A stretch of 56,816 bases of DNA from a virus (taxonomy: Duplodnaviria > Caudoviricetes), in the IMG/VR virus record IMGVR_UViG_3300009159_000084, positions 1 to 56,816 of that record; one strand, 5' to 3'. The notes under the pieces were generated by a model. It saw nothing but the letters and a program-made list of their open reading frames with translations. It did not search any database and was not told the origin of the DNA. Shown in pieces: positions 3,499-56,816 of the stretch. Each line of letters starts with the position of its first letter. The first letter of the stretch is position 1. Position numbers and translations under genes: made by a program.

Positions 3499-4193
3499 TT
3501 AATTATGAATGGAATCAAGACTTACTTAACTGGCAAGAAGGAACCCCAAGTACCGTTCCCGTAATTCGCGCATACGATTGGGAAACAAGTAGCGATGAAC
3601 CCCCATTCATGGCATACATTGCCATTCCTAAAACTGGCACAAGTTCTATCTTTGAACAGTTAGCCATGCCAAAAGTATGCACTTCTCGGCATCAGACAAG
3701 GCATGTTCCAGCGGTTGCTACTTTAGATCACAATCATGATCATTCATTGATTACTTTTATTCGTGAACCGTTTCAACTGTATTGCTCATTCTACATTTTT
3801 ATGAAATGGCGCATAGATAACGGTTTCATTGGCAGCCCTATGCAAATGTTCCACGCTAATACAGAAAACGTAGCACTTATCCAATCAGGCGCAACACTTG
3901 AAGAATTTCTTCTCCAATGCCCTGTTGGTCAGTTCTATCCATATTTTGTTAATCCTTTAACAGCGCAAGATTTTGATTTCATTGGCAACATTGACCGCTT
4001 TGAAGAATCAATCGTTGCTTTTAATGCAATGTTTAATTTGTCGTTAGATGTAGTTCATTACAATAAAGGACAACAGGATTCTCCTTATGTTGTGAGTGAT
4101 GAGGTTGTTGCGGCTTTTAAGTCACGTCAATCTGAGGAATATGTTGTGTATAACGATTTGTTGTTGGCTTCGAATTTGATGCTGGAAAATTAA
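3495..4193 (+). CDS. Sulfotransferase (Sulfotransfer_2-like)
   Basis: YIAIPKTGTSS (PAPS 5'-PSB loop), FIREP, DFIG motifs. Confidence 0.7.
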   Translation: MINYEWNQDLLNWQEGTPSTVPVIRAYDWETSSDEPPFMAYIAIPKTGTSSIFEQLAMPKVCTSRHQTRHVPAVATLDHNHDHSLITFIREPFQLYCSFYIFMKWRIDNGFIGSPMQMFHANTENVALIQSGATLEEFLLQCPVGQFYPYFVNPLTAQDFDFIGNIDRFEESIVAFNAMFNLSLDVVHYNKGQQDSPYVVSDEVVAAFKSRQSEEYVVYNDLLLASNLMLEN

Positions 4194-4264
4194 AAATAAC
4201 ACTTTCAGGCAAAGATTCCCCGCCACCTATTCCATGTTAAACGGGTGTTTGATAGGTTGTGGTT

Positions 4265-4927
4265 ATGCGCGTAGCCCTGATTACTGCCGTCTATAACGGC
4301 TATGACCCTGTAAAAGATTTGCCTGCCGATCACGGATTTGATGAAGTGATCTGTGTCACAGATGGGGAGAGTCCTGTTGGTGAGGGCTGGGACATTGTGT
4401 TTGAGCCGTCCAATTTACATCCCCGGCTTGCTGCTAAGCGGCCTAAAATGATGCCTTGGTTGTATACGGATTGTGATGCAGCGGTGTGGCTTGATGCCTC
4501 GTTTAGTGTGAAATCTGCTGATTTTTCTCGGTGGGCGCGGCAACTGCTTGCGATGAGTGATTTTATTGTGTGGCCCCATCCTGAGAACAGGTATTGCATT
4601 ACGCAAGAGGCGCCTGTGTGTTGGGATTGGGAGAAATATAAGGATTGGGATATGCGGGGTCAGTTGCAGCATTATCTTGATGATGGGATGCCTCGTGATT
4701 GGGGTTTGTTTGCGTGTGGAACGGTGGGCTACCGGTTTACTGATGAGGTTAAAGATTTTGGTGAGCAGTGGTATGCGGAGCAGGCCCGGTGGAGTATTCA
4801 GGATCAGGTATCTTTGCCGTATTTGTTGTGGAAGAACGGCAAGCGGTTTGGTTTATGGCCTGCTCATGAGTATAAGAATGATTTTGTGGAGTTGCATTGG
4901 GCGGATCGTCCTAATCCTTCGCAGTGA
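4265..4927 (+). CDS. Glycosyltransferase-like protein (DUF616/TOD1-MUCI70-like)
   Basis: ITAVYNGYD, CVTD, KMMP, WLDAS, HPENRYC, DQVSLPY motifs. Confidence 0.7.
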   Translation: MRVALITAVYNGYDPVKDLPADHGFDEVICVTDGESPVGEGWDIVFEPSNLHPRLAAKRPKMMPWLYTDCDAAVWLDASFSVKSADFSRWARQLLAMSDFIVWPHPENRYCITQEAPVCWDWEKYKDWDMRGQLQHYLDDGMPRDWGLFACGTVGYRFTDEVKDFGEQWYAEQARWSIQDQVSLPYLLWKNGKRFGLWPAHEYKNDFVELHWADRPNPSQ

Positions 4928-7386: not shown

Positions 7387-7988
7387 CGCATCAAGGAAAC
7401 GTGTCGGTTCATTCGGAGGTGATGCTGCACGCTGTTGATCGTTTTTTGCAACGGAAACCGTTGCGGGTGCTCATTCTTGGTGTTGGCAATGGCGGATCAA
7501 TGCAGGTGTGGGAGAAAGTTTTACCTGAGGGTTCGACATTGCATGGCGTTGATATGAATCCCGCTTGCATCGATTTGGGTTTGAATGTTGTAGTTGGAGA
7601 TGCAAAAGATCGGACATGGGTAAGTCAGACGTTCAAAGGAAAATGGTTTGATTTAATTATTGATTCGACCGGGGAAATGGTGAATCACCTTTGGCCATAT
7701 TTAACGGTTAACGGACTCATGGTGTACGAGAATTATATCTTTAAGGATATGATCGAACTTGCTCACGCTATTGAGAATGAAAGTAAATCGTGGTTGCCTG
7801 TTGAAGAAATAATGCAGATCATGTGGTTCCCAAAAATTGCGGCTATTGAGAAACGAAATCCTCGGGTTGTCCCCTATCTTGATATTATTGTTGGAGCCCA
7901 TGATCCCATTGTTCCCGTGAGCAATTACATTGCGCGTGGAGCAAAACGTATTGCTCCAATAAAACCGGAGGCTGTTACTCCCGAGTAG
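7362..7988 (+). CDS. Class I SAM-dependent methyltransferase-like protein
   Basis: LILGVGNGGS..W, GVD, GDA, FDLIID; motifs somewhat degenerate. Confidence 0.6.
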   Translation: MGYRAEWITHQGNVSVHSEVMLHAVDRFLQRKPLRVLILGVGNGGSMQVWEKVLPEGSTLHGVDMNPACIDLGLNVVVGDAKDRTWVSQTFKGKWFDLIIDSTGEMVNHLWPYLTVNGLMVYENYIFKDMIELAHAIENESKSWLPVEEIMQIMWFPKIAAIEKRNPRVVPYLDIIVGAHDPIVPVSNYIARGAKRIAPIKPEAVTPE

Positions 7989-24472: not shown

Positions 24473-24587
24473 GGCTTACACCTCGGGGTTGGTTTGTGTT
24501 GTATCTGGGCATTATTGTGGTTGCTATTGTTGCAAACATTCTGCTCCGTGATTTCTGTTGGGGCGGTCCATGCGTTTGGGAGGAACA

Positions 24588-24809
24588 ATGATTAAAAATA
24601 AAGATCAGGCTCAAGTGCAAAGAAATTACGCATGGGCCGTTGCCGAATGGCTTCGTGACACTGATGAATATGATATTTACGCGGCCGATATTTTAGATTG
24701 TTTAGCCTGTTTAGGGTTTACCTTAATTCCTTCAACAACAGACGAAGCAGACGCAATGACCCTCGCATACATCATGGAATTGGATTTATATGTCGAAAAG
24801 GATTCCTAA
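24588..24809 (+). CDS. Hypothetical protein
   Basis: RBS GGAGG. Confidence 0.6.
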   Translation: MIKNKDQAQVQRNYAWAVAEWLRDTDEYDIYAADILDCLACLGFTLIPSTTDEADAMTLAYIMELDLYVEKDS

Positions 24810-25011
24810 ATACAGCGAAGATTTTATTCGCAATTTTTGTGAAGAATTTGAATGGACACGCCCACGACATAGCGGCCTCTGTTCAGTCGCCGCACCCATT
24901 TTCAATCTATCGCCTAGGACCGTTGCAAAATACCTTACTTACGGCAAAACCAATTTTGGGATAGTTGTTTCTCACGTTGATGACTCAACTAGGGCTAGGC
25001 TCTCCGCATGA
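24790..25011 (+). CDS. Possible HTH protein
   Basis: VAAPIFNLSPRTVAKYL. Confidence 0.45.
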   Translation: MSKRIPKYSEDFIRNFCEEFEWTRPRHSGLCSVAAPIFNLSPRTVAKYLTYGKTNFGIVVSHVDDSTRARLSA

Positions 25012-27150: not shown

Positions 27151-27687
27151 ATGAACTACGACCTCAGCACCGTTGAAGGTGCCCTGCAATTAGTAATTGA
27201 AGCCCACGCCGGGCAGGTGGATAAGCAAGGCCACCCATACATCCTGCACCTTGTTCGAGTCGGTGCATCACTTTGGCGGTTCGGTGATGACGCTGTTATT
27301 GCCGGATTGTTGCATGACGTAGTGGAAGACAGCGCGGTCACGTTGCAAGATCTCGCAAATTATGGCGCTTCACCTGCCGTAGTGAGCGCGGTTGCCTCGG
27401 TTACAAAACACACCTCAGAAGCCAATTGGGAGGACTATGAGGTCAGTATCCGTAAGGCTCTGGCCGATCCGGTGGGCAAGTGGGTTAAGGCCGCTAACGT
27501 GGCTGACAATGCCGGGCGTTTGGATGGGATCCCGTGGGGTCCGTTGCATAAGCGTTTGGAATCCAAGTATGAGAAGGCTGTTGCGTTGATTGCTACGGTG
27601 ATTCCGGGTTATCGGATTGATTTGGAGTTGCGTCCCGCGCGAGACATTTTTGATGATTTGTCGGATGCGGATTTCCGAGATCTATAG
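27151..27687 (+). CDS. HD-domain hydrolase, RelA/SpoT small alarmone hydrolase-like
   Basis: AHAGQVDK.G.PYILH, AGLLHDVVED, VKAANVADN. Confidence 0.8.
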   Translation: MNYDLSTVEGALQLVIEAHAGQVDKQGHPYILHLVRVGASLWRFGDDAVIAGLLHDVVEDSAVTLQDLANYGASPAVVSAVASVTKHTSEANWEDYEVSIRKALADPVGKWVKAANVADNAGRLDGIPWGPLHKRLESKYEKAVALIATVIPGYRIDLELRPARDIFDDLSDADFRDL

Positions 27688-30457: not shown

Positions 30458-31576
30458 ATGGCGTTGACCATTGGTGGCAAGGGTCGCAATCCCGGCGGCT
30501 CTGGCCCTCAGGCCCCGCTTACCCCGTTGGAGCAGTCGCTCACTGAGCGTGTTGCTGCAGCATTGCGGGTATTGGGCACACAGATGGATCCCGATGCTTA
30601 CGCACGCGCTATAACGGCTCTTGATCCCGATCTGTTGGAACGTTTGCTTGCAAACATCAACATGGATCGCATTGACATGCTTATGCGTGACACGATGCGG
30701 GGCATTGTTATTAAGGGCGGCACTGAAGAGGCTCGCCGTATTTTGCGTTCTAATCCTCGAGCACAGTTCAACATGGATTCCGCTCTTGCCTATACAGGCC
30801 AGAAACTTGAATCAGGCATTATCCTGCCGGGTAGTCAACTGCCACCCCCTCCCGGTATCGAGTTTGCTCTTGAAACCCCCGTTGAGCGAATGTTTAACAC
30901 GATCAGCACCCGGGCGACCGATTATGCGACAACACGATCAGCGCAACTCGTGCGCGAGATCACTGACGCTAACCGTCTCGCTATTCGTCAAGTAATCTCA
31001 CAGGCATTCACAAAACCTCGGACAGTGGACGCTACAGCCCGTGAACTACGGCAAATTGTTGGCCTTCATCCACGGTGGGCTCGTGCCGTGCTGAATTTTG
31101 ATGAAAAGAATTTCACGGCCATGGTGAAGGCCGGTGTGTCACTCGATGATGCCCGTGCCCGTACCGATAACTTGACGAAAAAGTATCGAGATAAGTTGAT
31201 TCGTCGCCGCGCTGAAATGATTGCCCGCACTGAAGTGCAACAGGCTCAAAACTTTGGTCGCGCTGCATCATGGGAGGCGTCAGATAAAGCCGGTCTCGTG
31301 GATCCCACCTCGATGAAAGAATGGCGCACGGCGCCTCGTGGGTCGAGTTACGGGGAGCCATGTGACGAATGTGCTGCTATGCGGGGCACGCGGGTACCTT
31401 GGAACGGAACGTTTGGTAATGGTGACGTAATGCCACCGGCTCATCCTCATTGCCGCTGTACAGCCGTTCTTGTCCCGCCTACTCGTGGGCTTGAAGGATT
31501 ACCTTCTCAGGATCTTGGTTCATGGATTACTCAATTGGATGCGTTGGAAGCGCAAGATGCGGCGGTTACCTCATGA
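30458..31576 (+). CDS. MuF/SPP1 gp7-like head morphogenesis protein
   Basis: RAEMIARTE, K.W, CDEC, PPAHPHCRC. Confidence 0.88.
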   Translation: MALTIGGKGRNPGGSGPQAPLTPLEQSLTERVAAALRVLGTQMDPDAYARAITALDPDLLERLLANINMDRIDMLMRDTMRGIVIKGGTEEARRILRSNPRAQFNMDSALAYTGQKLESGIILPGSQLPPPPGIEFALETPVERMFNTISTRATDYATTRSAQLVREITDANRLAIRQVISQAFTKPRTVDATARELRQIVGLHPRWARAVLNFDEKNFTAMVKAGVSLDDARARTDNLTKKYRDKLIRRRAEMIARTEVQQAQNFGRAASWEASDKAGLVDPTSMKEWRTAPRGSSYGEPCDECAAMRGTRVPWNGTFGNGDVMPPAHPHCRCTAVLVPPTRGLEGLPSQDLGSWITQLDALEAQDAAVTS

Positions 31577-33399
31577 CCGAAATCTATTTTGAGCCCGGTC
31601 TTACTCCCGTTTTGAAGCATCCCGGTCATTCCGATCAAAAAGTTCATGGGCGGCGCGGCCCCGGCGTGTCAGTAAAACCTGAAGTCGCTGGATCCATCCT
31701 TGAGCGGGTAAAAGCCAATGGTGGCTTGTCGGTGAACATGCTTGACGGGTCGGAGCCAACTACTGGGTTCATGGTCGCTAAGGGCGGCACTAAGGGCGAC
31801 ATCGTTGATGCGGATGAATTCTTTGACGCTAAGAAAGGTCCGGCTCATCTTTCATCATTTTTGAAGACACATAAAGCGTCCCTAACTAAGGGTTCATACC
31901 TCGGGTTATGGCACAACACTGAAGATGGTAAGGTCTACCTCGACGTATCCGACAACATCAAGGATCGTGGGAAAGCAATAACTGCAGGGAAACGGCGTAA
32001 CCAGATTAGTATTTGGGACGTCGCTAATTTTAAGGAGATCGGTACAGGTGGCACAGGAGAACTCGCCAAAGAAATTGCAGGCAGTGGAGTTGCCGGATTT
32101 GTCGACGGCTACGGACGAAGAGATCGACAAGTACGCGCAACAGATCTGGGAGAAGTTCGCTCAGACTCAGTAGTCGTAAAGTTTGCTCCCGGTCTTGTTC
32201 CTTTGTTGAAGCACGGTGATCTTTCACGCCCCGGGTATGCGGCAATGCACCCCGATAGTCAAGGACGAATCGGTGTACACACCGGTCGACGCACTGACGC
32301 AAAAAATCAAGCAAAAGCAGATGCAAACCTTATTCATGAGGCGACCTCGCTGGAGGCGCTACCTGCCGATATGCAAGGTCGAGTCAACGAAGGTCTCACA
32401 ACCCTCGGTATTACATCAGATCAAATGGATGCAAACATTGAAGCAACCCTCAGTCGAGCCAATATCGACGGAGCAGATCCCGCTGGACAAAACTGGTACG
32501 GCGACGCAAACGCCGCATCTAAAGACATATCAGAACGATATGGCGTAACTCATGAACAATCCGCCGGGATGATTGCAGCGACAAGCCCACAGCAACCGTG
32601 GGGCGATAACGTTACAGCGGTTGAATACATGGCTAAAGCAACAAAAGAAAACCACGAAATTCAAACTGGCGCCCTCATGGATCACCAACGCACTAAAGGC
32701 AAGGGCGATACTCGATCACTTTACGAATGGGCAAAATCGGAAGTAGATGGCCGCACTATGGATGGCGAAATACACAACATGCCGGCCATTGCAGAACTAC
32801 AGGGCAAGCGCATGTCGGACATTAAAGATCCTTATGTGCGGGCCGCTTTGATGAAGGCTCAAGCCCAAATGGGTTACCGTGTTTCAGGTATCGGCACAAA
32901 TAAAGATGGGCAATCGTTGAAAACGGTTGACGATCTCACCGGTCTTGTAGCCCCCGTCAAATTTACTTGCGGCGTTCAACATCTTGGCCGTGCGGTGAGG
33001 ATTTCTGATGGAGAGCAACCGGACATGGTGCTTAATGGGCATAAAGTTCGTTCGTTCTATAACAACATTCGCAATCCTAAAAGTAAGCACGATGACATTA
33101 CGGTTGATTCTCATGCTTTCAGTATTGCGATGGGTAAAAAGTACGGTTCGGGGTCCGATGAATACAAGTATTTCAGCGGTTCGGGTTGGAAGGCACGCGG
33201 TGCCTCACCGGTTTCGAACAAAACGCTTGGGGTTTCGGGTCTTTATCCCGCGTTTGCTGACTCTTATCGCCGGGTAGCAGCAAAACATGGACTGTCAGCG
33301 CATCAAGTGCAATCCATAACGTGGGTTCAATGGCGTAAAGACAACCCCGATCAAACTCGTGGTGGACAAATGGCTAGGGAGGCCGCAAATGCCGGATAA
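31573..33399 (+). CDS. Two-module head-associated polyprotein (tagged domain plus HhH-like domain)
   Basis: F.PGL.P.LKH leader twice; HPGHSDQKVHG tag; C-term WY..SPQ.W..N / KVRSFYNNI / TVDSH / QSITW; ATGA-coupled to MuF. Confidence 0.7.
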   Translation: MTEIYFEPGLTPVLKHPGHSDQKVHGRRGPGVSVKPEVAGSILERVKANGGLSVNMLDGSEPTTGFMVAKGGTKGDIVDADEFFDAKKGPAHLSSFLKTHKASLTKGSYLGLWHNTEDGKVYLDVSDNIKDRGKAITAGKRRNQISIWDVANFKEIGTGGTGELAKEIAGSGVAGFVDGYGRRDRQVRATDLGEVRSDSVVVKFAPGLVPLLKHGDLSRPGYAAMHPDSQGRIGVHTGRRTDAKNQAKADANLIHEATSLEALPADMQGRVNEGLTTLGITSDQMDANIEATLSRANIDGADPAGQNWYGDANAASKDISERYGVTHEQSAGMIAATSPQQPWGDNVTAVEYMAKATKENHEIQTGALMDHQRTKGKGDTRSLYEWAKSEVDGRTMDGEIHNMPAIAELQGKRMSDIKDPYVRAALMKAQAQMGYRVSGIGTNKDGQSLKTVDDLTGLVAPVKFTCGVQHLGRAVRISDGEQPDMVLNGHKVRSFYNNIRNPKSKHDDITVDSHAFSIAMGKKYGSGSDEYKYFSGSGWKARGASPVSNKTLGVSGLYPAFADSYRRVAAKHGLSAHQVQSITWVQWRKDNPDQTRGGQMAREAANAG

Positions 33400-33598: not shown

Positions 33599-36571
33599 GT
33601 GACTGATACAGCGACCCGTCTTGCGGGGCTCTCGGATGAGCGCCTCATGTCCCTACACAAAGCAGCGGACAAAAAAGCCCCTGTCGACGCGGCCCAAATT
33701 GAAGCACATCACCTTATTGCTACAGAATTGTTGAAGCGCGGACTAGAACACGGCCATAATGACGATTCTTGGGCCTCTGCAGTCATCATTAAAGACACTG
33801 TAGGCATTTCCTCACCGGAAGAAATTGACGCCCCAGAGGGCATGGAAAAGGCTTGGGCTGAAACGCTGAAAGATGGCGGCACGGTCTCAATTTTGCTCAC
33901 AGTTGACGGTTACGTCCTCAAAGCAGATCCAACTGTCTCCGATGTCCACGTCGATGCCGTAATGGGGGGCCGTCGCCGTCGCCCATTAGACAAAGCCGAA
34001 TGGAAAGAGGGAGACTTCGCGGTCTGGGGTTCCTCCGGCGGATCAGCCAGAGGACAGATCGAGCACATCATGCGGGAAGGAGTCCTCGGTATACCCGATA
34101 GCGACTTTAGTATTGAAGCCACGGAAGATGATCCGGCTGTTCTGCTGCGGATCTTCCGTAAAGGTCCTAAAGGTTGGGCTGCAACAGAGACCCTCGTAGG
34201 TCACAAGATGTCTGCCCTTAACCCCATCGAAGACTTGATTAAGGAAGCGGGCTATCAAGTACCCGAAGGGGTGCAATCCGCTGCTAAAACTGCCCTCAAG
34301 TGGATCGCTGATGGTCAATCGGGTGACGGGTTCACGTCAGTTGGTAGAAATAGAGCCGATCAACTCGCCTCCGGTGGAACTGTAAGTCGCGCAACCCTCG
34401 TTAAGATGAGGGCCTATTTCGCTCGACATTTTGTGGATAAAGAGGCTGAGGGATGGGGAGACCGCACTGATCCAACCCCCGGTATGGTTGCTTGGTATGC
34501 GTGGGGCGGTGACGCTGGCCGCACATGGGCGAACACAATACTAGGCAAGGTCGAGAAGCGCGCCATCCCAGAAGCGATCACAGATCTACACATAAACATT
34601 GAAAACCGTCAGCACGCTATAGACGAATATTTGTATGGCCCAATGAATCCTGAGGAGCCCGGTGACTACTGGGAGCGACTGGGCGCAGTTTGGGATGTTT
34701 CCGCAGAAGAGGCTTTCACAACCCACTGCGGAAATTGCTCTGCCTTCAACATCACGCCAGAAATCCGCACCGCTATCGCTGACGCTATCGGGGAAGGCGG
34801 CGAAGAGGTAGTAACCTCCGCCGACCTCGGCTACTGCGAACTGTTTCAGTTCAAATGTGCTGCCGCCCGTTCCTGCTCCGCTTGGCTGGTTGGGGGGCCA
34901 ATTGGATTATCCGACGAAGAAGAAGATGGGGAGATTGAACTTCTTGCCTCCATGGATCAACAAGATCTTACAGATTTTGCTAGTTACGCCTACCTCGCTG
35001 ACGAAAACAGCATAGACAAGGCTGGTAACCCTGAATCGTTGCGCGATTATTGGCGCGGCGGCGGCAAGGGCAAAGTGTCATGGGGTGCCGGTGGAGATTT
35101 TACTTCATGTGTCGCCGCTGTAGGCAAGTACATGAGCAGCGAGCAGGCTAAGGGCTATTGCGCTATTCGTCACCGTGAGGTTACGGGAATGTGGCCGGGA
35201 GATAAGCGCAACCGTATGAAGAAAGAATCAACCGTTGTGTTGAAGCATCCGGGTCACAGTGATCAAAAAGTTCATGGCGGTCATGGTGGTGGCGCGGGTA
35301 CTGATCTTTCCCCTGAAGGCAAGACTCTTATCAAGCAGAATCTTTCACGCGGCAATCTTGTCGAGTCCTACGGTGCGTCATATGATCACGGCAAGGCGGC
35401 AAAAGCATTTGGTCAAGATCACGTCGACCGTAAAGTAAGCGAGTCCGTTGGTAAGCGCGATGCGTTGATCAGTCAACACGCCGGTAAGACACGTTCTCAC
35501 GCTACTGAAGGTGCGGCGTTTTCTGTTGCCTCACATCAAGGTTTCATTGATGGGGCCATGGGACGTAAAGCACAGTTTGCTCGGTCACATAACTTTGGTG
35601 AAACTGTCGCTGGATTCTTTGGCGCTGGCCTATCTGGTGCGACTAAGGCTCGTGAACCGTTCGAGAAACATCCGGGTCACTCTGATCAGTCAGTCCATGG
35701 CCGTAAGGGTGGAGGATCTGCAAGCGCTGGGGCTAAGGCTCCCGCAAAGGTCGAACCTAAGACTGGTGTTAAGCGTCCCGGTATGGGCGACGGTACAAAA
35801 GTAAGCGACGAAGATTTTGCTAAATTAAAAGACGGATCCGCTGGGGCGCATATTATTGGGCGCGACAAAAACGGCGCTCCTATTTTCACCCCGGAACGTC
35901 AAGCGCTCCACGATAAAATTGTTCTTGACTCAGTAACAGGGGTGCCTACTTCAAAAGATTTGACTTACAGTATGCTCGGGGGAGGCCCCGCTGCTGGAAA
36001 GTCAAGCATGGAATCCAAAGTTATTGGTGACTATAGAGGGAAAGCCGTTGCCGTTAATTCAGACAACGTAAAAGTGCAACTTCCTGAATTTCAAGCAAAA
36101 ATTGACAGCGGCACTACTGGTTCTGAAGCCGCAGCGTTTGTGCATGAAGAATCTTCATACGTTGCAAAACGTGTTCAACAAGCCGCATTTGAGCGTCGTC
36201 AAGACGTTGTGCTTGATGGCACGGGTGATTCAAGCGCTGAAGGTTTGCAGGGAAAAATAGATAAAGCGCATAAACTTGGTTATACAGTCAATGGATATTA
36301 CGCGACTCTTCCAACTGAGACTGCCGTTCGGTTAGCGAAACAACGCGAAGCAGAAACTGGTAGAGGTGTTCCTGAACACACTATTAGAGGGACACATAAA
36401 TCAGTTTCGCAAGTTTTTCCAACTGCGGTTAAAGGTATGGACAAAATTCAATTATTTGATACGTCTGATTTTTCGGCAGGCCCTAAATTGATTGCCGAGG
36501 GAAGTAAAGGCCGTTTAATTATCCGCGACGCGGATGCTTACGAGTCTTTCTTAAATAAGGGGAATGAATAA
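33599..36571 (+). CDS. Multidomain head-associated polyprotein with C-terminal zeta-toxin (P-loop kinase) domain
   Basis: GGGPAAGKSS, VNSD..K, HEES, VVLDGT, R..ETGRGVP; two HPGHSDQxVHG tags; several small upstream domains. Confidence 0.8.
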   Translation: MTDTATRLAGLSDERLMSLHKAADKKAPVDAAQIEAHHLIATELLKRGLEHGHNDDSWASAVIIKDTVGISSPEEIDAPEGMEKAWAETLKDGGTVSILLTVDGYVLKADPTVSDVHVDAVMGGRRRRPLDKAEWKEGDFAVWGSSGGSARGQIEHIMREGVLGIPDSDFSIEATEDDPAVLLRIFRKGPKGWAATETLVGHKMSALNPIEDLIKEAGYQVPEGVQSAAKTALKWIADGQSGDGFTSVGRNRADQLASGGTVSRATLVKMRAYFARHFVDKEAEGWGDRTDPTPGMVAWYAWGGDAGRTWANTILGKVEKRAIPEAITDLHINIENRQHAIDEYLYGPMNPEEPGDYWERLGAVWDVSAEEAFTTHCGNCSAFNITPEIRTAIADAIGEGGEEVVTSADLGYCELFQFKCAAARSCSAWLVGGPIGLSDEEEDGEIELLASMDQQDLTDFASYAYLADENSIDKAGNPESLRDYWRGGGKGKVSWGAGGDFTSCVAAVGKYMSSEQAKGYCAIRHREVTGMWPGDKRNRMKKESTVVLKHPGHSDQKVHGGHGGGAGTDLSPEGKTLIKQNLSRGNLVESYGASYDHGKAAKAFGQDHVDRKVSESVGKRDALISQHAGKTRSHATEGAAFSVASHQGFIDGAMGRKAQFARSHNFGETVAGFFGAGLSGATKAREPFEKHPGHSDQSVHGRKGGGSASAGAKAPAKVEPKTGVKRPGMGDGTKVSDEDFAKLKDGSAGAHIIGRDKNGAPIFTPERQALHDKIVLDSVTGVPTSKDLTYSMLGGGPAAGKSSMESKVIGDYRGKAVAVNSDNVKVQLPEFQAKIDSGTTGSEAAAFVHEESSYVAKRVQQAAFERRQDVVLDGTGDSSAEGLQGKIDKAHKLGYTVNGYYATLPTETAVRLAKQREAETGRGVPEHTIRGTHKSVSQVFPTAVKGMDKIQLFDTSDFSAGPKLIAEGSKGRLIIRDADAYESFLNKGNE

Positions 36572-36573
36572 AG

Positions 36574-37440
36574 ATGGCTAAAGCAAGTGATATTTTTTCA
36601 ATTACCGCAGAAATAGTGCGTGGCAAAGAAAAAACAGATAGTTTGGTTCCGTTGGATTCTGAATTATCTGAATTATGGGATTTGATTGCGGCAGATGTTG
36701 CTGCATCTCCTGAAACTATTTGGGATATTCCAAGCGAAAATCCTGATATCGATACGGATGATCTTGCATATATGGATGAGCCTGCAACAAAAAGTATCGG
36801 TATCGAGTCAGATGAATTAACGCTCGTATCTAAAGCCGTGCCAGAGCGTATGTTCACCCTTGGCCCGATGTACATCCCCAATCGCATGGATGCACACGCC
36901 GAATGGACAGACCCCGATGAACTACAGAAAGCCGTTTGGGAATACGTCCGCAAGGGTGACCGTCGCATCAGGCTGCAACACAACCGCGATGTAGTAGCAG
37001 GTGAGTTCGTTGAAGTCATGGCATGGCCGTATCCCGTTGAAGTACCCATGGTGCAAAAAAGCGGTGCTACAACAAACATGACTTTCCCCGCTAACACTGT
37101 TTTCCTTGGTGTCGTGTGGGAGCCATGGGCATGGGAGTTAGTGAAGAACGATAAGTTACGCGGCTACTCAATCGGCGGCCGTGCCGAGCGCCTTCTCGCT
37201 GACCTTCCTGAAGAGTACGTCGGTAAGGCTATGGCACCGTTTGAAGACGCTATCCGCATTGAGGCTGAAGATTCACCTCAGCAACCAATCGACATTGGGC
37301 AGCAGATCGCTACCGCTGTCGCTGAAGCAATGAAATCAATTAGTCCTACCGTTAATGTCGTCATGCCTGAAGACAAGCCTAAGATTAGGCGCGTCGAACG
37401 TGATGATCACGGCAATATTTTACGAATCGTTGAGGAGTGA
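36574..37440 (+). CDS. XkdF-type prohead serine protease with acidic N-terminal extension
   Basis: G.MYIPN..DAH.EW...EL.KA, LQH, W.LVK..LRGYSIGG. Confidence 0.82.
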   Translation: MAKASDIFSITAEIVRGKEKTDSLVPLDSELSELWDLIAADVAASPETIWDIPSENPDIDTDDLAYMDEPATKSIGIESDELTLVSKAVPERMFTLGPMYIPNRMDAHAEWTDPDELQKAVWEYVRKGDRRIRLQHNRDVVAGEFVEVMAWPYPVEVPMVQKSGATTNMTFPANTVFLGVVWEPWAWELVKNDKLRGYSIGGRAERLLADLPEEYVGKAMAPFEDAIRIEAEDSPQQPIDIGQQIATAVAEAMKSISPTVNVVMPEDKPKIRRVERDDHGNILRIVEE

Positions 37441-38444: not shown

Positions 38445-38960
38445 ATGTTTCTGTCCAATGACAATGGGGTAAGTACCTCATTCGCTAAGCAGGCCACGCC
38501 AATGTTTAAGGCAGCCCCTGAAGTTGTGGCAGTACTACGCCCCTTGCTCGCTGACGTGTACGCCATGCAGACCGCTGTTCAGGGCGCTCACTGGAACGTG
38601 CAGGGCACTGACTTTGCTCAATACCATGAACTCTTCGCTGAGATCTATAGCGATGTCGCGGACAGCATTGACCCGCTCGCTGAGAACATCCTTAAGGCCG
38701 GCGGGCTCGCTGTAGCGTCCCTGACCGACATGCAGGCCCTCCGTACCACCACTGACCCGGTAGAGTCCCGCGATGCACGCCAATTGGCTATCGGTCTTGC
38801 TGCAATGAATGACGCCGTGCTCGTGCGGATCAATGCCGCATTCCTTGTGGCCGAGTCACAGAATGAGCCGGGCATCTCGAATTTCCTTGCTGACCGTGAC
38901 GACATGCACAAGAAGTGGCGCTGGCAGTTGCGTGCATCTCTTGGTGAGCCTGTTGGCTAA
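38445..38960 (+). CDS. dps: Dps / ferritin-like protein
   Basis: AHWNV.G..F...HELF..Y.......D..AE, NFLADR...H.K..W.L. Confidence 0.9.
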   Translation: MFLSNDNGVSTSFAKQATPMFKAAPEVVAVLRPLLADVYAMQTAVQGAHWNVQGTDFAQYHELFAEIYSDVADSIDPLAENILKAGGLAVASLTDMQALRTTTDPVESRDARQLAIGLAAMNDAVLVRINAAFLVAESQNEPGISNFLADRDDMHKKWRWQLRASLGEPVG

Positions 38961-47316: not shown

Positions 47317-50300
47317 GTGGCTCAGGTAACTGTAACCGCGCAGTATGTTGCCGACACTACCTCGTATGTTAATAACGTACGCAAGGCCACGGACGCCACC
47401 AACTCTTTTGCAGCATCATTACCCAACGCGGCACGTTCTCAAGACGCTGTTAAAACATCAACAATTGCTCTCGGTACAGCGATGGGCACTCTTGGCGCTT
47501 CAGTTCTTGCTAAAGCCGCTGCCGCTGTAAAAAACTTCGCTATGCAGGGCATTCGCGCTGCTGCTCAATATGAACAAACCGTAATTTCCATGAAAGGAAT
47601 CTTCCAAGGTTCCGGCATGGACGTGCAGGAGGCTGCAAAGAAAACCGAATCCTACCTCGGTGAATTGCGTGACTTCGCTGCCAAGACTCCGTTTGAATTA
47701 CCTCAAACCCTTGACGCTGTTAAGCGACTTCTATCTATCGGCTATGCCGCTGACGATGTAAAAGACCGTTTGCTGCCTGCCATTGGTGACATCACTTCCG
47801 CCCTCGGCCAACCTGCTTCAGCAATTAACGGTGTGGTGTATGCGTTTGGACAGATGAAATCTGCTGGACGTGTCATGTCTCAGGACTTGATGCAGATAGG
47901 TAATCAACTTCCCGGCTTTAACGCAAAAATGACCCTTACTAAGGAACTGTTCAACGGTGACGTTGGGGCGATGGCTAAGGCGATGGAGTCCGGGTCTTTG
48001 GATTCGACTAAGGCTATTGACGTTTTGATTGAGGGAATGAAGAAATTCCCGGGTGCTGCCGGCGCTATGGAACGTCAATCTAAATCGCTTAATGGTGTTA
48101 TCTCGACGTTTAAGGACACAGTAAACAATGCGTTGATTGATGGCATCATGCCGGCAATTCCGGCTTTGTCTGGAACGCTTGAGGGTCTTATCCCACCGGT
48201 TGAGGCTGCAGCAAAAGCCTTTGGCGATAACCTTGGTCCATTGTTGATTCAAGCCGCTGAAATTATGAGCGCGTTTGGTCCTATTGTTACTGCCGTTATT
48301 CCTCCTTTGATGCAATTGACTTCGGCCACCGGTGGTATCACCGTAATTTTGAAGGCCCTTTCTCCGGTCATTGTTGCCGCCGGTAACGCCTTGGGGATTA
48401 TTGCTAGTGCGTTTAACATTTTGCCGGGACCAATCAAGGACGCTATCGGTGTCATGATTGCCTTGCGTTTAATCATGTTCAAACTAAATGTTGATGCAGC
48501 AAAAATGTCGGCAGGAATGACTGCGGCCTTTGCCAAAATTTTCATGGTATTCAAAATGACAATGAATGGCATGAAAACCCAAATGATTGCGTCTACAACG
48601 CAAATGGGTGCTTTGGGTGCTGCCGCTAAATTCCTTGGCATGGGAGTAGTAAATTCGTTCCGCACCATGGTTATTGCTGCTAAATCATTTATGGTTTCTC
48701 TTGGCCCTATAGGCTGGGCATTGATTGCCGCTTCTGCCGCAATGGAATTCTTCATGGGCAAGAGCGCCGCTACCGATGCCGCCGTGTCTCAGTTGAAAGA
48801 AACTATTGACGCTACCACCGGAGCACTCAATGAAATGGGTGTGCAATACATATCTTCTGAGTTCCGAACCAATATTAGTCAAGAAGATTTAGACATTCTT
48901 AAAAAGTACGGCATCACCATGGAAGAAATGATTGCTGCAGCCGATCAGGGCGGCGATGCTATGGAATCATTTAAGACCAAAATGGCCGGAATAGATGCTA
49001 AAGATTTTGGTTTGCTCTCGGCAACGATCATGGATCCGGTTAAAACTATTCAAAATACTGTCGAAGGTATGAACGAGTATGTTACCGCTGCTAGAGAAAA
49101 GTCTGGTATCGATAAACAAGCCGCTAGAGACGCAAAATCTTACACAGGTGCTTTAAGCGGTCAAACTGCTGAGGTAAAAAAATCTAATACTGAAATTTAT
49201 CTTGCCGCTGTTTACGCAAGACGAGGCACGGATGCTACGCAGGTTTTAACAACTGCAATTAATGGTGCAACGTTTGCTTACAAAAAGTTTAATGACACGT
49301 TGAGTGTTCAAGAGCAATGGGATAACGCAATAAGTTCAAGTAATGATCTTGCTGACACCCTGAAAAAGAATGGTCAGCAGTTTGATAACACCACAAAAAA
49401 GGGTCTTGAAAATCGTGCTGCTATTCGTGACACGGCTAAGGCTTGGATTGAGTACGCTGATGCTGCTAACGATCCGATTATTAAACAGAAACGTCTTGCT
49501 GAGGGTGAAGCGGCAATGCGTAGAGCGCTTAAAGGTAAATTTGATTCTAAGGAACTTGGTGTTGTTCAAGCGTTTAAGAATGCACAGAAAGAAACTAATC
49601 TCGGTGCTGATGCTTGGGATAAGGAAAAGAAGGCGGCGTCTGGCGCGGGTATTGATGTTGGAACAAACTTTGTTAACGGTATTGCTGAAGCATTAAAGGC
49701 CAAGAAGCAAGAAGTGGAAACCGCTGCTGGCGAGACCGGTACAGCAATGCTTACCGGTGCTAATAACGCTATCGCTGCTAAATCTCCTTCTCGTGAGGCA
49801 ATGAAAGTTTCCGGTAACTTTATTGACGGCATCGTGGTTGGCCTTAAAGCCCGTACAGGTTTGGTACTTAAAGGAAGCGCGGCAGTTGGTCAAGAACTGT
49901 TGGCCGGTGTTAAGGATGCCCTGAAGTCCGGAGGAAATATTTCGGGTTTGCTTTCCGGTGTGTTTGGTTCAATGCCTGAAATTCCTACCCCGCTTGAGGC
50001 TGCTCTTGGTAAGAAGGGTGCGGAGAGTTACCTGAAGAAGCATAAGAAGGAACTTTCTGCATTGCAGCAAGCCTTTGGTGATATGGACAAACTTAACGAG
50101 ACCATGAAGACAGCGAAGGCTGCTTTGATGGAGATCGGTGACGCAAGCAAGCAGATTTCTGGCGTGTACAGGGGTGCGACTCTCACTGAGGCCGGTTCGG
50201 ACATTATTAGTGCGCTCGGTAAAGAGGGCAATCTTTCGAGTGCGATGTCGATGCTCGCTCAATTGGGCGCATCGGCTGACGCTGCTTATGATTCTTTGAT

Positions 50301-56105: not shown

Positions 56106-56816
56106 ATGGCAACGATTAGTACCGTACCGCGTCCCGCGTATGTCTACGACGCGAGCGCAAGCACTTGGTACCCGATAGGTGGGCAGGCACAAGCCTTCCT
56201 GAGTGTGTATGAATATTCCGCTTCGGCCGGTCAAACCACGTTTTCGGGTGCGGATCTCAACTCAGCGAGCCTGTCATACACTTCTAATGCCCTGTCATTA
56301 TTCCTTAACGGTGTGCTGCTTGCCCCCGGTGATGATTACACGGCTACTTCGGGGTCGTCTGTGGTGTTGGCTTCGGGAGCCGCCGCATCTGACTACTTGA
56401 TCGCTCAAGCAATCACGTCATTCACTGTCGCTAATACTTATACTCAGGCTCAAGTTGATGGCTATCTTGCGTCAAAATCGGCTAGTGCTACTACATATAC
56501 GAGTTCTCAGGTTGATGGTTATCTTGCATTAAAAGCAAATCTTGCTGGGCCTACCTTTACGGGTACGGTAACCATTCCAACAGAATCAGTAACTACTTCA
56601 ACTATTGGAACATTAACTGTATCTACAAAACTTATTGCAGAAGAACAAATGCAGATTGCTCTTTCTGACGAAACAACCGCAATCACAACTGGCACAGGCA
56701 AACTTACAATGCGAGCACCATTTGCATTAACTCTTACGCAAATCCCTAGAGCATCTGTAAATACTGCGTCTTCATCTGGTTTGCCAACAGTTGATATTAA
56801 CGTTGGCGGCACATCA
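56106..56816 (+). CDS. Tail fibre/structural protein, runs off the end
   Basis: Open frame MATISTVPRPAYVYD..LFLNGVLL..DYTA..ALSDETTAITTGTGK..; RBS GGAGG. Confidence 0.75.
   Translation, partial: MATISTVPRPAYVYDASASTWYPIGGQAQAFLSVYEYSASAGQTTFSGADLNSASLSYTSNALSLFLNGVLLAPGDDYTATSGSSVVLASGAAASDYLIAQAITSFTVANTYTQAQVDGYLASKSASATTYTSSQVDGYLALKANLAGPTFTGTVTIPTESVTTSTIGTLTVSTKLIAEEQMQIALSDETTAITTGTGKLTMRAPFALTLTQIPRASVNTASSSGLPTVDINVGGTS

Follow-up and report, generated by a model that had tools for sequence, protein, structure and literature searches.

In a 56,816-nt stretch of viral DNA, hereafter the window (IMG/VR virus record IMGVR_UViG_3300009159_000084; Duplodnaviria; Caudoviricetes), a 990-aa head polyprotein ends in a P-loop kinase module of the zeta/AvrRxo1 type, and the gene that follows it encodes an XkdF-family protease whose N-terminus carries a small acidic domain that we call type A. 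The evidence supports the view that the kinase module and this N-domain form one laterally acquired cassette, in which the N-domain is the kinase's conserved partner. The pairing follows the same toxin-immunity cassette logic that is found in AvrRxo1:Arc1 and in MuF toxins, here located at the junction between cargo and protease. As its distribution among related sequences suggests, type A would be a cognate immunity domain or antitoxin-like binder of the kinase (probability about 0.7), co-made with it via a coupled junction and, in the window phage, tethered to the protease by a flexible linker.

Conserved pairing of the kinase with type A

The distribution of type A was followed in several collections, the first of which consists of 80 viral loci fetched with an XkdF alignment (the protease-anchored sample). 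N-extensions and upstream C-termini were assigned to groups by clustering of the last 200 aa together with hidden Markov models (HMMs), single-linkage BLAST clusters having over-merged; matches to the N-domain HMMs were accepted at a lenient E<0.01 for the counts within each sample and at 1e-3 for the 238-locus and metagenome counts. Type A is present in the protease open reading frame (ORF) of 23 of the 80 loci, and in all 23 a zeta domain ends 0-70 nt upstream. On the question, posed in advance, of whether relatives without zeta carry the extension all the same, the count is none among the 56 loci that lack an adjacent zeta domain, an outcome that speaks for a partnership with the kinase. 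Four of these 56 (L043, L044, L059, L065) do encode a zeta domain several kb (about 5 kb) from XkdF, and each of these zeta domains has a type A ORF of 65 aa behind it. Consistent numbers came from Pfam, whose Zeta_toxin model was found in 23 of the 46 upstream C-termini submitted (72 had been extracted), 22 of them belonging to type A loci and one to locus L014.

An unrelated N-domain, type B, occurs in 28 of the 80 loci and always after one other C-terminal domain. This second domain is RelA/SpoT-like (RSH): a PDB search with its profile gave E 3e-28 for entry 8vx3 ('SaSAS') and E 0.05 for Tas1, and the Pfam model RelA_SpoT gave only E 0.008. In the remaining loci XkdF ends longer polyproteins, some of them with internal RSH and type B, as in L047, where a single 974-aa ORF comprises trunk, RSH, type B and XkdF; in Arthrobacter phages a 2H phosphoesterase stands ahead of XkdF.

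When the kinase itself served as anchor (80 zeta-anchored loci), type A adjoined it in 65. The partner takes several forms: a free ORF of 60-110 aa, mostly 0-20 nt after the stop codon, in 43 loci, a fusion to XkdF in 12, a fusion to another large ORF in 3, a segment of the kinase's own ORF in 2, and a convergent ORF on the opposite strand in 5. In most cases, then, type A has a small ORF to itself and XkdF is absent from the surrounding 3 kb (the 43 of 80). Free partners outnumber fused ones, and the pairing can therefore do without fusion to the protease. An earlier note on this DNA had suggested that the fusion ties the cassette to an essential gene; with so many free partners, such a tie is at most a side effect. 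In the corresponding sample anchored on RSH (80 loci), type B is joined to XkdF in 31 loci, stands alone in 21, forms a fusion with some other protein in 6 and lies within the same ORF in 2; another 12 have no type B and 8 run off the locus.

The pairing is also specific. Six-frame scans of 238 loci (1.79 Mb) gave 82 matches to type A and 98 to type B, of which 81 and 96, respectively, lie no more than 1.2 kb from the end of their own toxin domain; these counts include duplicates because some contigs were retrieved by several scans, and the two remaining type B matches belong to loci truncated at the 5' end. Seen from the type A side, the evidence for this specificity consists of HMM scans over loci retrieved by anchors other than type A, and the single window N-domain, used as a metagenome query, returned no matches. 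These counts uphold that part of the earlier toxin-antitoxin reading which held that a single cassette had been acquired and that the N-domain is the conserved partner, type A being found beside this one kinase clade.

Other collections gave the same picture. Among 49 metagenome loci type A was found in 10, with zeta directly upstream in 9 and only 88 nt of upstream sequence in the tenth, and among 29 loci from bacterial genomes and metagenome-assembled genomes it followed 8 of the 10 closest kinases, with several phyla represented. When 1.8 billion representative proteins were searched with the N-domain, 9 matched at E<=1e-3, including free proteins of 67-88 aa (free-standing homologues overall span 67-127 aa) and a fusion to a ParB-like protein (P0122); further fusions join type A to 1,000-aa ORFs (L120, L126).

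Several architectures were seen in passing. Tandem cassettes in L018, L109, L201 and L274 consist of zeta, then a protein with type A, XkdF and RSH in that order, then a free type B ORF; L047 and L234 have the all-in-one architecture, and in L099 one ORF holds zeta, type A and RSH. In L110 a type A-like ORF of 65 aa is convergent with the kinase gene, whose stop it overlaps by 4 nt.

The various forms of the partner bear on another way of looking at type A, namely as a loading adaptor or chaperone that joins the cargo polyprotein and the protease for packaging or substrate presentation, with a kinase that needs no silencing. Fusions of effectors to proteases are indeed thought to load cargo, as with the 2H phosphoesterase and XkdF of Arthrobacter phages, and partners fused to XkdF account for 12 of the 80 zeta-anchored and 31 of the 80 RSH-anchored loci. 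Assemblin-like peptidases are likewise reported at the C-termini of polyvalent proteins (PMC5512222), and Arc1 was, according to PMC4938570, originally described as a chaperone. Against an adaptor stand the 43 loci where the partner is free and no XkdF lies within 3 kb and the five where it is convergent, and both of the paired toxin families are classic growth-arresting toxins with immunity proteins (PMC12226406). We consider a purely adaptor role unlikely; loading and inhibition are in any case mutually compatible.

The Arthrobacter fusion itself deserves a remark. In phages Laroye, Waltz and Ottawa (L001-L003), gene 18/87 encodes a 2H phosphoesterase (LigT-like) fused to XkdF, and the GenBank label varies by record among RNA ligase, aldolase, capsid maturation protease and hypothetical protein. 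Such a fusion shows that accessory domains are commonly attached at the N-terminus of the protease.

The kinase module

The kinase module is an intact member of the zeta/AvrRxo1 superfamily. A profile built from 21 relatives and run against the PDB matched zeta (1gvn_B) at E 1.2e-9, AvrRxo1-ORF1 at E 9e-9 and PezT at E 2e-5, the next family being Pnkp1 at E 1.8e-4, and the window kinase as a single sequence matched zeta alone (E 2.6e-5). The Pfam model Zeta_toxin, the sole Pfam match on the 990-aa polyprotein (no Phage_Mu_F domain was found on it), covers aa 789-942 at E 8.2e-22 and 78.1 bits against a cut-off of 22.3, but it is promiscuous, having matched 14 of 14 control genomes, 13 of them above the cut-off, so the family assignment rests on the PDB profile search and on comparison of folds. 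An independent grouping, PHROG phrog_16619 ('minor head protein'), matches aa 737-989.

The active site appears complete. Lys801 of the Walker A motif aligns to zeta K46 and Asp822 to zeta D67, and both are invariant in the 21 relatives, as are the motif GGGxxGK as a whole, K825, HEESS, DGTG, R916 and H933; the earlier description of a zeta-like kinase with intact Walker A and D..K motifs is thereby borne out. For the fold, an AlphaFold2 (AF2) model was available of a 39%-identical relative (L118) and not of the window's own domain. It gave Z scores of 18.9 with AvrRxo1-ORF1, 17.8 with zeta and 17.0 with PezT, against 13.0 with polynucleotide kinase, and 241 residues were superposed on AvrRxo1-ORF1 at 22% identity.

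Zeta and PezT are UDP-N-acetylglucosamine (UDP-GlcNAc) kinases, and AvrRxo1 is a NAD kinase. By both profile and fold the window kinase is no further from AvrRxo1 than from the UDP-GlcNAc kinases, and for this reason UDP-GlcNAc, which the earlier note named as the substrate of zeta/PezT toxins, cannot be assumed as its substrate.

The same closeness to a NAD kinase can be read differently, with the domain as a packaged enzyme that is no toxin and that modifies a nucleotide or sugar-nucleotide (such as NAD or a cell-wall precursor) early in infection, type A being its regulatory or activating subunit. A role of this sort was proposed by Iyer et al. 2017, for whom phage zeta-like kinases weaken the wall and so aid DNA injection (PMC5512222). 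The characterised members of the fold group are nonetheless all said to arrest bacterial growth unless neutralised (PMC4938570), and the parallel cassette with a RelA/SpoT-like domain argues for toxin-immunity logic; of the explanations considered here, a non-toxic enzyme seems to us the least probable.

The cassette and its junction

Both members of the pair lie in a block of low GC content whose limits, found as change points in cumulative GC (at 35793 and 36834), coincide with the domain boundaries of the kinase module and the N-domain. GC content at third codon positions is 0.33 in the kinase module and 0.24 in the protease N-extension, compared with 0.45-0.57 in the rest of both genes and in their neighbours. 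An AT-richer patch over kinase and extension, ending near 36800, had already been noticed by eye, and these values agree with it. The cassette is one of about eight patches in the window that fall more than 2 standard deviations under the mean GC.

The other seven such patches (1-350, 1800-2200, 3500-4350, 7500-7950, 24500-25000, 48400-49600 and 56400-56800; lowest value 0.35 near 3900) suggest further laterally acquired segments.

Stop and start codons of the two genes are separated by two nucleotides (Table 1), and a Shine-Dalgarno-like aagggga lies 11 nt 5' of the protease ATG. In relatives the same junction consists of ATGA or GTGA overlaps of 4 nt or TAATG-type overlaps of 1 nt, and it is because of coupling junctions of the ATGA and TAATG types that the frame relation of the two genes in relatives is constantly -1. 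A programmed frameshift joining kinase to protease was considered as well and is ruled out by an in-frame TGA three codons 5' of the ATG in the protease frame.

The order of the genes, toxin first and partner second, is that of AvrRxo1:Arc1 and of polymorphic toxins and is unlike that of epsilon/zeta, so the earlier likening of the locus to zeta/PezT systems does not extend to gene order.

The type A domain and the protease that carries it

The protease of 288 aa was modelled with AF2 using 33 relatives. Over aa 1-50 the model is confident (predicted local distance difference test, pLDDT, 88-97) and shows two helices, at residues 4-15 and 29-44, in an N-domain predicted to fold independently; confidence then falls in a linker with 10 acidic and 2 basic residues among its 36. 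The whole extension, counted as the 83 residues ahead of the Pfam domain, contains 21 acidic and 5 basic residues and has a pI of about 4.05. The acidic segment of about 70 aa that had been described as starting 2 nt after the kinase and lying outside the XkdF domain is thus confirmed, with the correction that its last 25 or so residues belong to a disordered linker and not to the folded domain of about 54 residues. Arthrobacter phages that lack zeta also have such an acidic stretch in front of the protease core.

Downstream of the linker, Pfam Peptidase_S78_2 matches aa 84-206 (E 5.6e-11, 43 bits against a cut-off of 24), and both H108 and S199 are fully conserved in two sets of relatives, one of 30 and one of 33. 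The best Foldseek matches of the core were herpesvirus assemblins, though weak ones, at E 0.011-0.03 (probability 0.97 at E 0.011) and TM 0.25-0.32. Among the 63 window ORFs scanned, XkdF is the sole match to a head-protease family, and it sits between the portal and MuF genes on one side and the scaffold and major capsid genes on the other, from which we infer that it is the essential capsid-maturation protease of the window phage. The closest relatives strongly conserve the end of its tail (37350-37437, ...VNVVMPEDKPKIRRVERDDHGNILRIVEE), for which a beta hairpin after a helix is predicted; the tail may be a capsid-targeting element.

By sequence, type A itself has no counterpart among Pfam families or solved structures. 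The window N-extension had zero matches to Pfam at E<=10, and two free-standing homologues gave only a chance-level Mst1_SARAH match (E 0.11, under the cut-off). No usable match was obtained in the ESM Atlas, and the type A alignment, used as a profile against the PDB, found nothing at E<=10, Arc1 (a chain of 4z8q) being among the structures searched.

Exchange of cassettes on conserved flanks

What is exchanged at this site becomes apparent when the flanks are compared. The window XkdF core is 85% identical to that of a relative (L009) with an RSH/type B cassette. Segments of the trunk within aa 301-560 are 64-76% identical to relatives having a different C-terminal domain, and with trunk and core taken together the identity to RSH/type B relatives is 64-85%, everything in between being unrelated. 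A tree of XkdF cores (52 rows) shows 12 changes of cassette type, of which 4 or more are forced by well-supported branches, and the toxin always switches together with the N-domain. Conserved flanks with a swappable toxin-plus-immunity cassette between them are the pattern of a polymorphic toxin system.

The boundaries of the exchanged unit may be marked by a family of short motifs. A regex scan found KHPGHSDQ(K/S)VHG three times and the variant KHGDLSRPGYAAMHP once (31615-31650, 32209-32253 and the two copies in Table 1), all four confined to the 625-aa and 990-aa head polyproteins and each followed by a Gly-rich stretch; motifs resembling KHPGHSDQxVHG also flank domains in relatives (L099, L015, L053). 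They are candidates for protease cleavage or linker sites between cargo domains, and the last copy is a candidate cleavage or recombination boundary.

With such flanks, the N-domain could be a passenger, carried in one recombination unit that extends from the linker motif to the start of the XkdF core and having a function that is related to the protease (for example as a pro-peptide) or to neither neighbour. Flanks of 64-85% identity around a variable cassette fit this well, and adjacency suffices for co-switching. A passenger would hardly be expected to behave as type A does elsewhere: it stays by the kinase where no protease is near, where it is fused to other proteins (P0122, L120, L126), where it is inverted (L110) and where the kinase lies 5 kb from XkdF, and it is never in the protease ORF without zeta directly upstream. 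The persistence of the pairing with other fusion partners, away from any protease and in inverted form is a stronger argument for it than co-switching, and it leaves the passenger explanation with a small probability, well below that of the adaptor.

As to the fusion, it may be a mere product of cassette exchange at a junction that is anchored downstream by the conserved start of the protease core, or it may add a loading or arming function.

Difficulties for the immunity reading

Several observations weigh against type A as the immunity partner of a toxin. Eleven of the 80 zeta-anchored loci have no type A at E<0.01 (the ORFs of a further 4 run off the locus). A lineage represented by L014, L159 and L272 has zeta upstream of XkdF, yet its 83-aa protease N-extension (MTEIDFEQWARDN...) is unrelated to type A. 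No sequence similarity of type A to epsilon, PezA or Arc1 could be detected, and the Arc1 motif KExFD...(Y/L)ExxYY was not visible by eye in its alignment. For a natural fusion of kinase and type A (L118), the AF2 model has a predicted template modelling score (pTM) of 0.65, which equals the kinase's share of the chain and says nothing on docking. Co-switching does not by itself prove interaction, because adjacent genes exchange together anyway, and the promiscuity of the Zeta_toxin model has been mentioned. Lastly, no integrase was seen among the 63 window ORFs scanned, so the rationale given for MuF toxins in terms of temperate phages may not apply here.

In the L014 lineage the two genes are 57 nt apart and in one frame, and the lineage may have a third partner type or no partner.

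Comparison with known systems

The closest solved relative of the kinase belongs to AvrRxo1-Arc1 of Xanthomonas and its relatives, in which a small helical partner likewise lies directly downstream. Arc1 is described as an antitoxin of 81-121 aa with 3-4 helices, encoded downstream of AvrRxo1, which is a delivered effector, and the module is reported to have a GC content below that of its genome (PMC4938570). The differences are that delivery there is by type III secretion and here, we infer, by the phage capsid; that the window kinase is the C-terminal domain of a polyprotein of some 1,000 aa; and that type A, with no sequence match to Arc1, is shorter (about 55-65 aa) and in this phage fused to the protease.

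With epsilon/zeta and PezAT the window kinase shares its fold, the Walker A Lys and equivalents of D67 and R171, and in both cases the antidote is small, acidic and helical. In those systems, however, the antitoxin gene is upstream and not downstream, the partners share no sequence similarity, type A is without a DNA-binding or autoregulatory part, and the setting here is a phage head module instead of a plasmid or chromosomal addiction module.

MuF polymorphic toxins offer a likeness of another kind, the toxin being the variable C-terminus of a head-module protein encoded next to portal and MuF, with a co-varying small immunity directly downstream; a small immunity ORF is reported directly after the toxin in 89% of 191 cases (Jamet et al. 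2017, PMC5576092). RelA/SpoT-type (p)ppApp synthetase domains are reported among MuF toxins as well (Apk2), with immunities of the binder type (PMC12226406). The window differs in that its toxin is not on the MuF protein, and in systems of its kind the next gene product, usually the XkdF protease, often carries the immunity as a fused domain. In the main text of the MuF toxin paper the word zeta has 0 occurrences (Jamet et al. 2017, PMC5576092).

Finally, the multi-domain packaged proteins termed polyvalent (Iyer, Burroughs, Anand, de Souza, Aravind 2017) resemble the polyproteins seen here, above all the all-in-one protein of L047; they include a zeta-toxin-like kinase, and an assemblin-like peptidase is placed at their C-termini (PMC5512222). 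In contrast to the present locus, we found in that paper no description of a cognate immunity or antitoxin partner or of a fusion of partner to protease (PMC5512222). The zeta-like kinases of polyvalent proteins, assemblin-like peptidases at C-termini and, for phage head modules, toxin-immunity logic are thus already published (Iyer 2017; Jamet 2017). We found no literature on a conserved partner family for phage zeta/AvrRxo1-like kinases, on another such family that serves the RSH-like domain at this site, on frequent fusion of the partners to the XkdF protease or, apart from Iyer 2017, on zeta in capsid proteins, with the reservation that supplementary files may list such architectures.

Genome context

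The window is a near-complete siphovirus-like genome (completeness estimate 94%) that also encodes a siphovirus-type tail module and WhiB. Its host is probably an actinobacterium, the nearest named phages having Arthrobacter as host. The head module runs in the order portal (28935), MuF-like protein (30458), a 625-aa DUF7178 polyprotein (31522), the 990-aa polyprotein, XkdF, a scaffold-like protein and the major capsid protein.

Two further genes lie in or next to this module. Just 5' of it, at 27151-27687, is a 178-aa ORF with an HD_4 domain (RelA/SpoT hydrolase type, E 2.8e-9); relatives of the window phage bear the RelA/SpoT-like toxin cassette, and this ORF may be an alarmone hydrolase, for which the hydrolase-type immunities of Apk2 toxins may be compared. 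Within the module, between the protease and the scaffold-like gene, lies a ferritin/Dps-like gene (38445-38960; Pfam Ferritin, E 5e-13).

Table 1. Positions of the cassette, the two proteins that share it and associated features in the window
Feature	Position	Strand	Details
Phage_Mu_F protein	30458-31576		372 aa, separate from the kinase polyprotein; Pfam
Head polyprotein (polyvalent cargo protein)	33599..36571	+	990 aa; trunk aa 1-733, C-terminal kinase module aa 734-990
Linker motif KHPGHSDQKVHG(GHG)	35243..35287	+	inside the 990-aa polyprotein; regex scan
Last linker motif KHPGHSDQSVHG	35666..35701	+	about 32 aa ahead of the start of the low-GC cassette; regex scan
Low-GC cassette	35794..36834	.	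kinase module, protease N-domain and linker
Zeta/AvrRxo1-type P-loop kinase module	35801..36568	+	Pfam match nt 35963-36424
Walker A, GGGPAAGKS	35978-36004	+	Lys is K801
Catalytic-Asp equivalent, D822	36062-36064	+	aligned to zeta D67
Tight junction TAA, AG, ATG	36569..36576	+	stop TAA 36569-36571, ATG at 36574
XkdF protease ORF	36574..37440	+	288 aa
Type A domain, acidic two-helix, putative immunity/antitoxin	36574..36735	+	aa 1-54; HMM match aa 3-67, E 1.4e-21
Acidic disordered linker, tethering type A to the protease	36736..36843	+	aa 55-90; pLDDT 37-56
XkdF (Peptidase_S78_2) core	36844..37212	+	Pfam; about aa 91-210, pLDDT 70-88
Protease C-terminal tail	37213..37440	+	ends in conserved ...DKPKIRRVERDDHGNILRIVEE; helix 241-255, hairpin 272-287

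A possible mechanism and its significance

A course of events can be proposed in which the kinase and its partner would have arrived jointly, as a low-GC cassette, between the polyprotein trunk and the XkdF protease domain, the toxin thereby becoming the C-terminus of the polyprotein and the partner the N-terminus of the protease. Large head-module polyproteins would be packed into the capsid, one of them ending in a kinase of a family known elsewhere as a growth-arresting toxin. Type A would most likely bind and silence this kinase, by analogy with Arc1 acting on AvrRxo1 or with the immunity proteins of polymorphic toxins, and tight translational coupling would give roughly 1:1 synthesis of the two. 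In the producing cell the tethered partner would hold the kinase off, and the complex of kinase and partner might then enter the procapsid along with the protease; once activated, the protease would cut the polyprotein at the linker motifs and remove the partner, as analogy with AvrRxo1:Arc1, MuF toxins and the assemblin-like peptidases of polyvalent proteins suggests, and the freed kinase would be ejected into the next host.

Carried to its full extent, this scheme would make the tethered immunity both a safety catch and a loading hook: it would grip the toxin and bring cargo and protease into the procapsid as a silent complex, whereupon the protease would destroy the immunity domain, cut the linkers and arm the toxin inside the sealed capsid, with the kinase/type A and RSH/type B cassettes being interchangeable. 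We advance this fuller version tentatively and hold it to be a good deal less probable than the binding of kinase by type A as such. If true, it would amount to a phage-borne polymorphic toxin delivery system with proteolytic arming.

Two candidate immunity families that had not been described are defined here, together with the site at which they are swapped, and the question arises whether a packaged zeta/AvrRxo1-type kinase, on reaching a newly infected cell, phosphorylates a cell-wall precursor or NAD. How phages that pack toxins survive the production of those toxins is largely unstudied, and a general answer is suggested by this locus and some 150 relatives, namely that toxin domains carried as capsid cargo have small cognate partners, which in many cases form part of the maturation protease. 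A partner in the protease would be an obvious route by which the toxin could be disarmed in the producing cell and armed in the virion.

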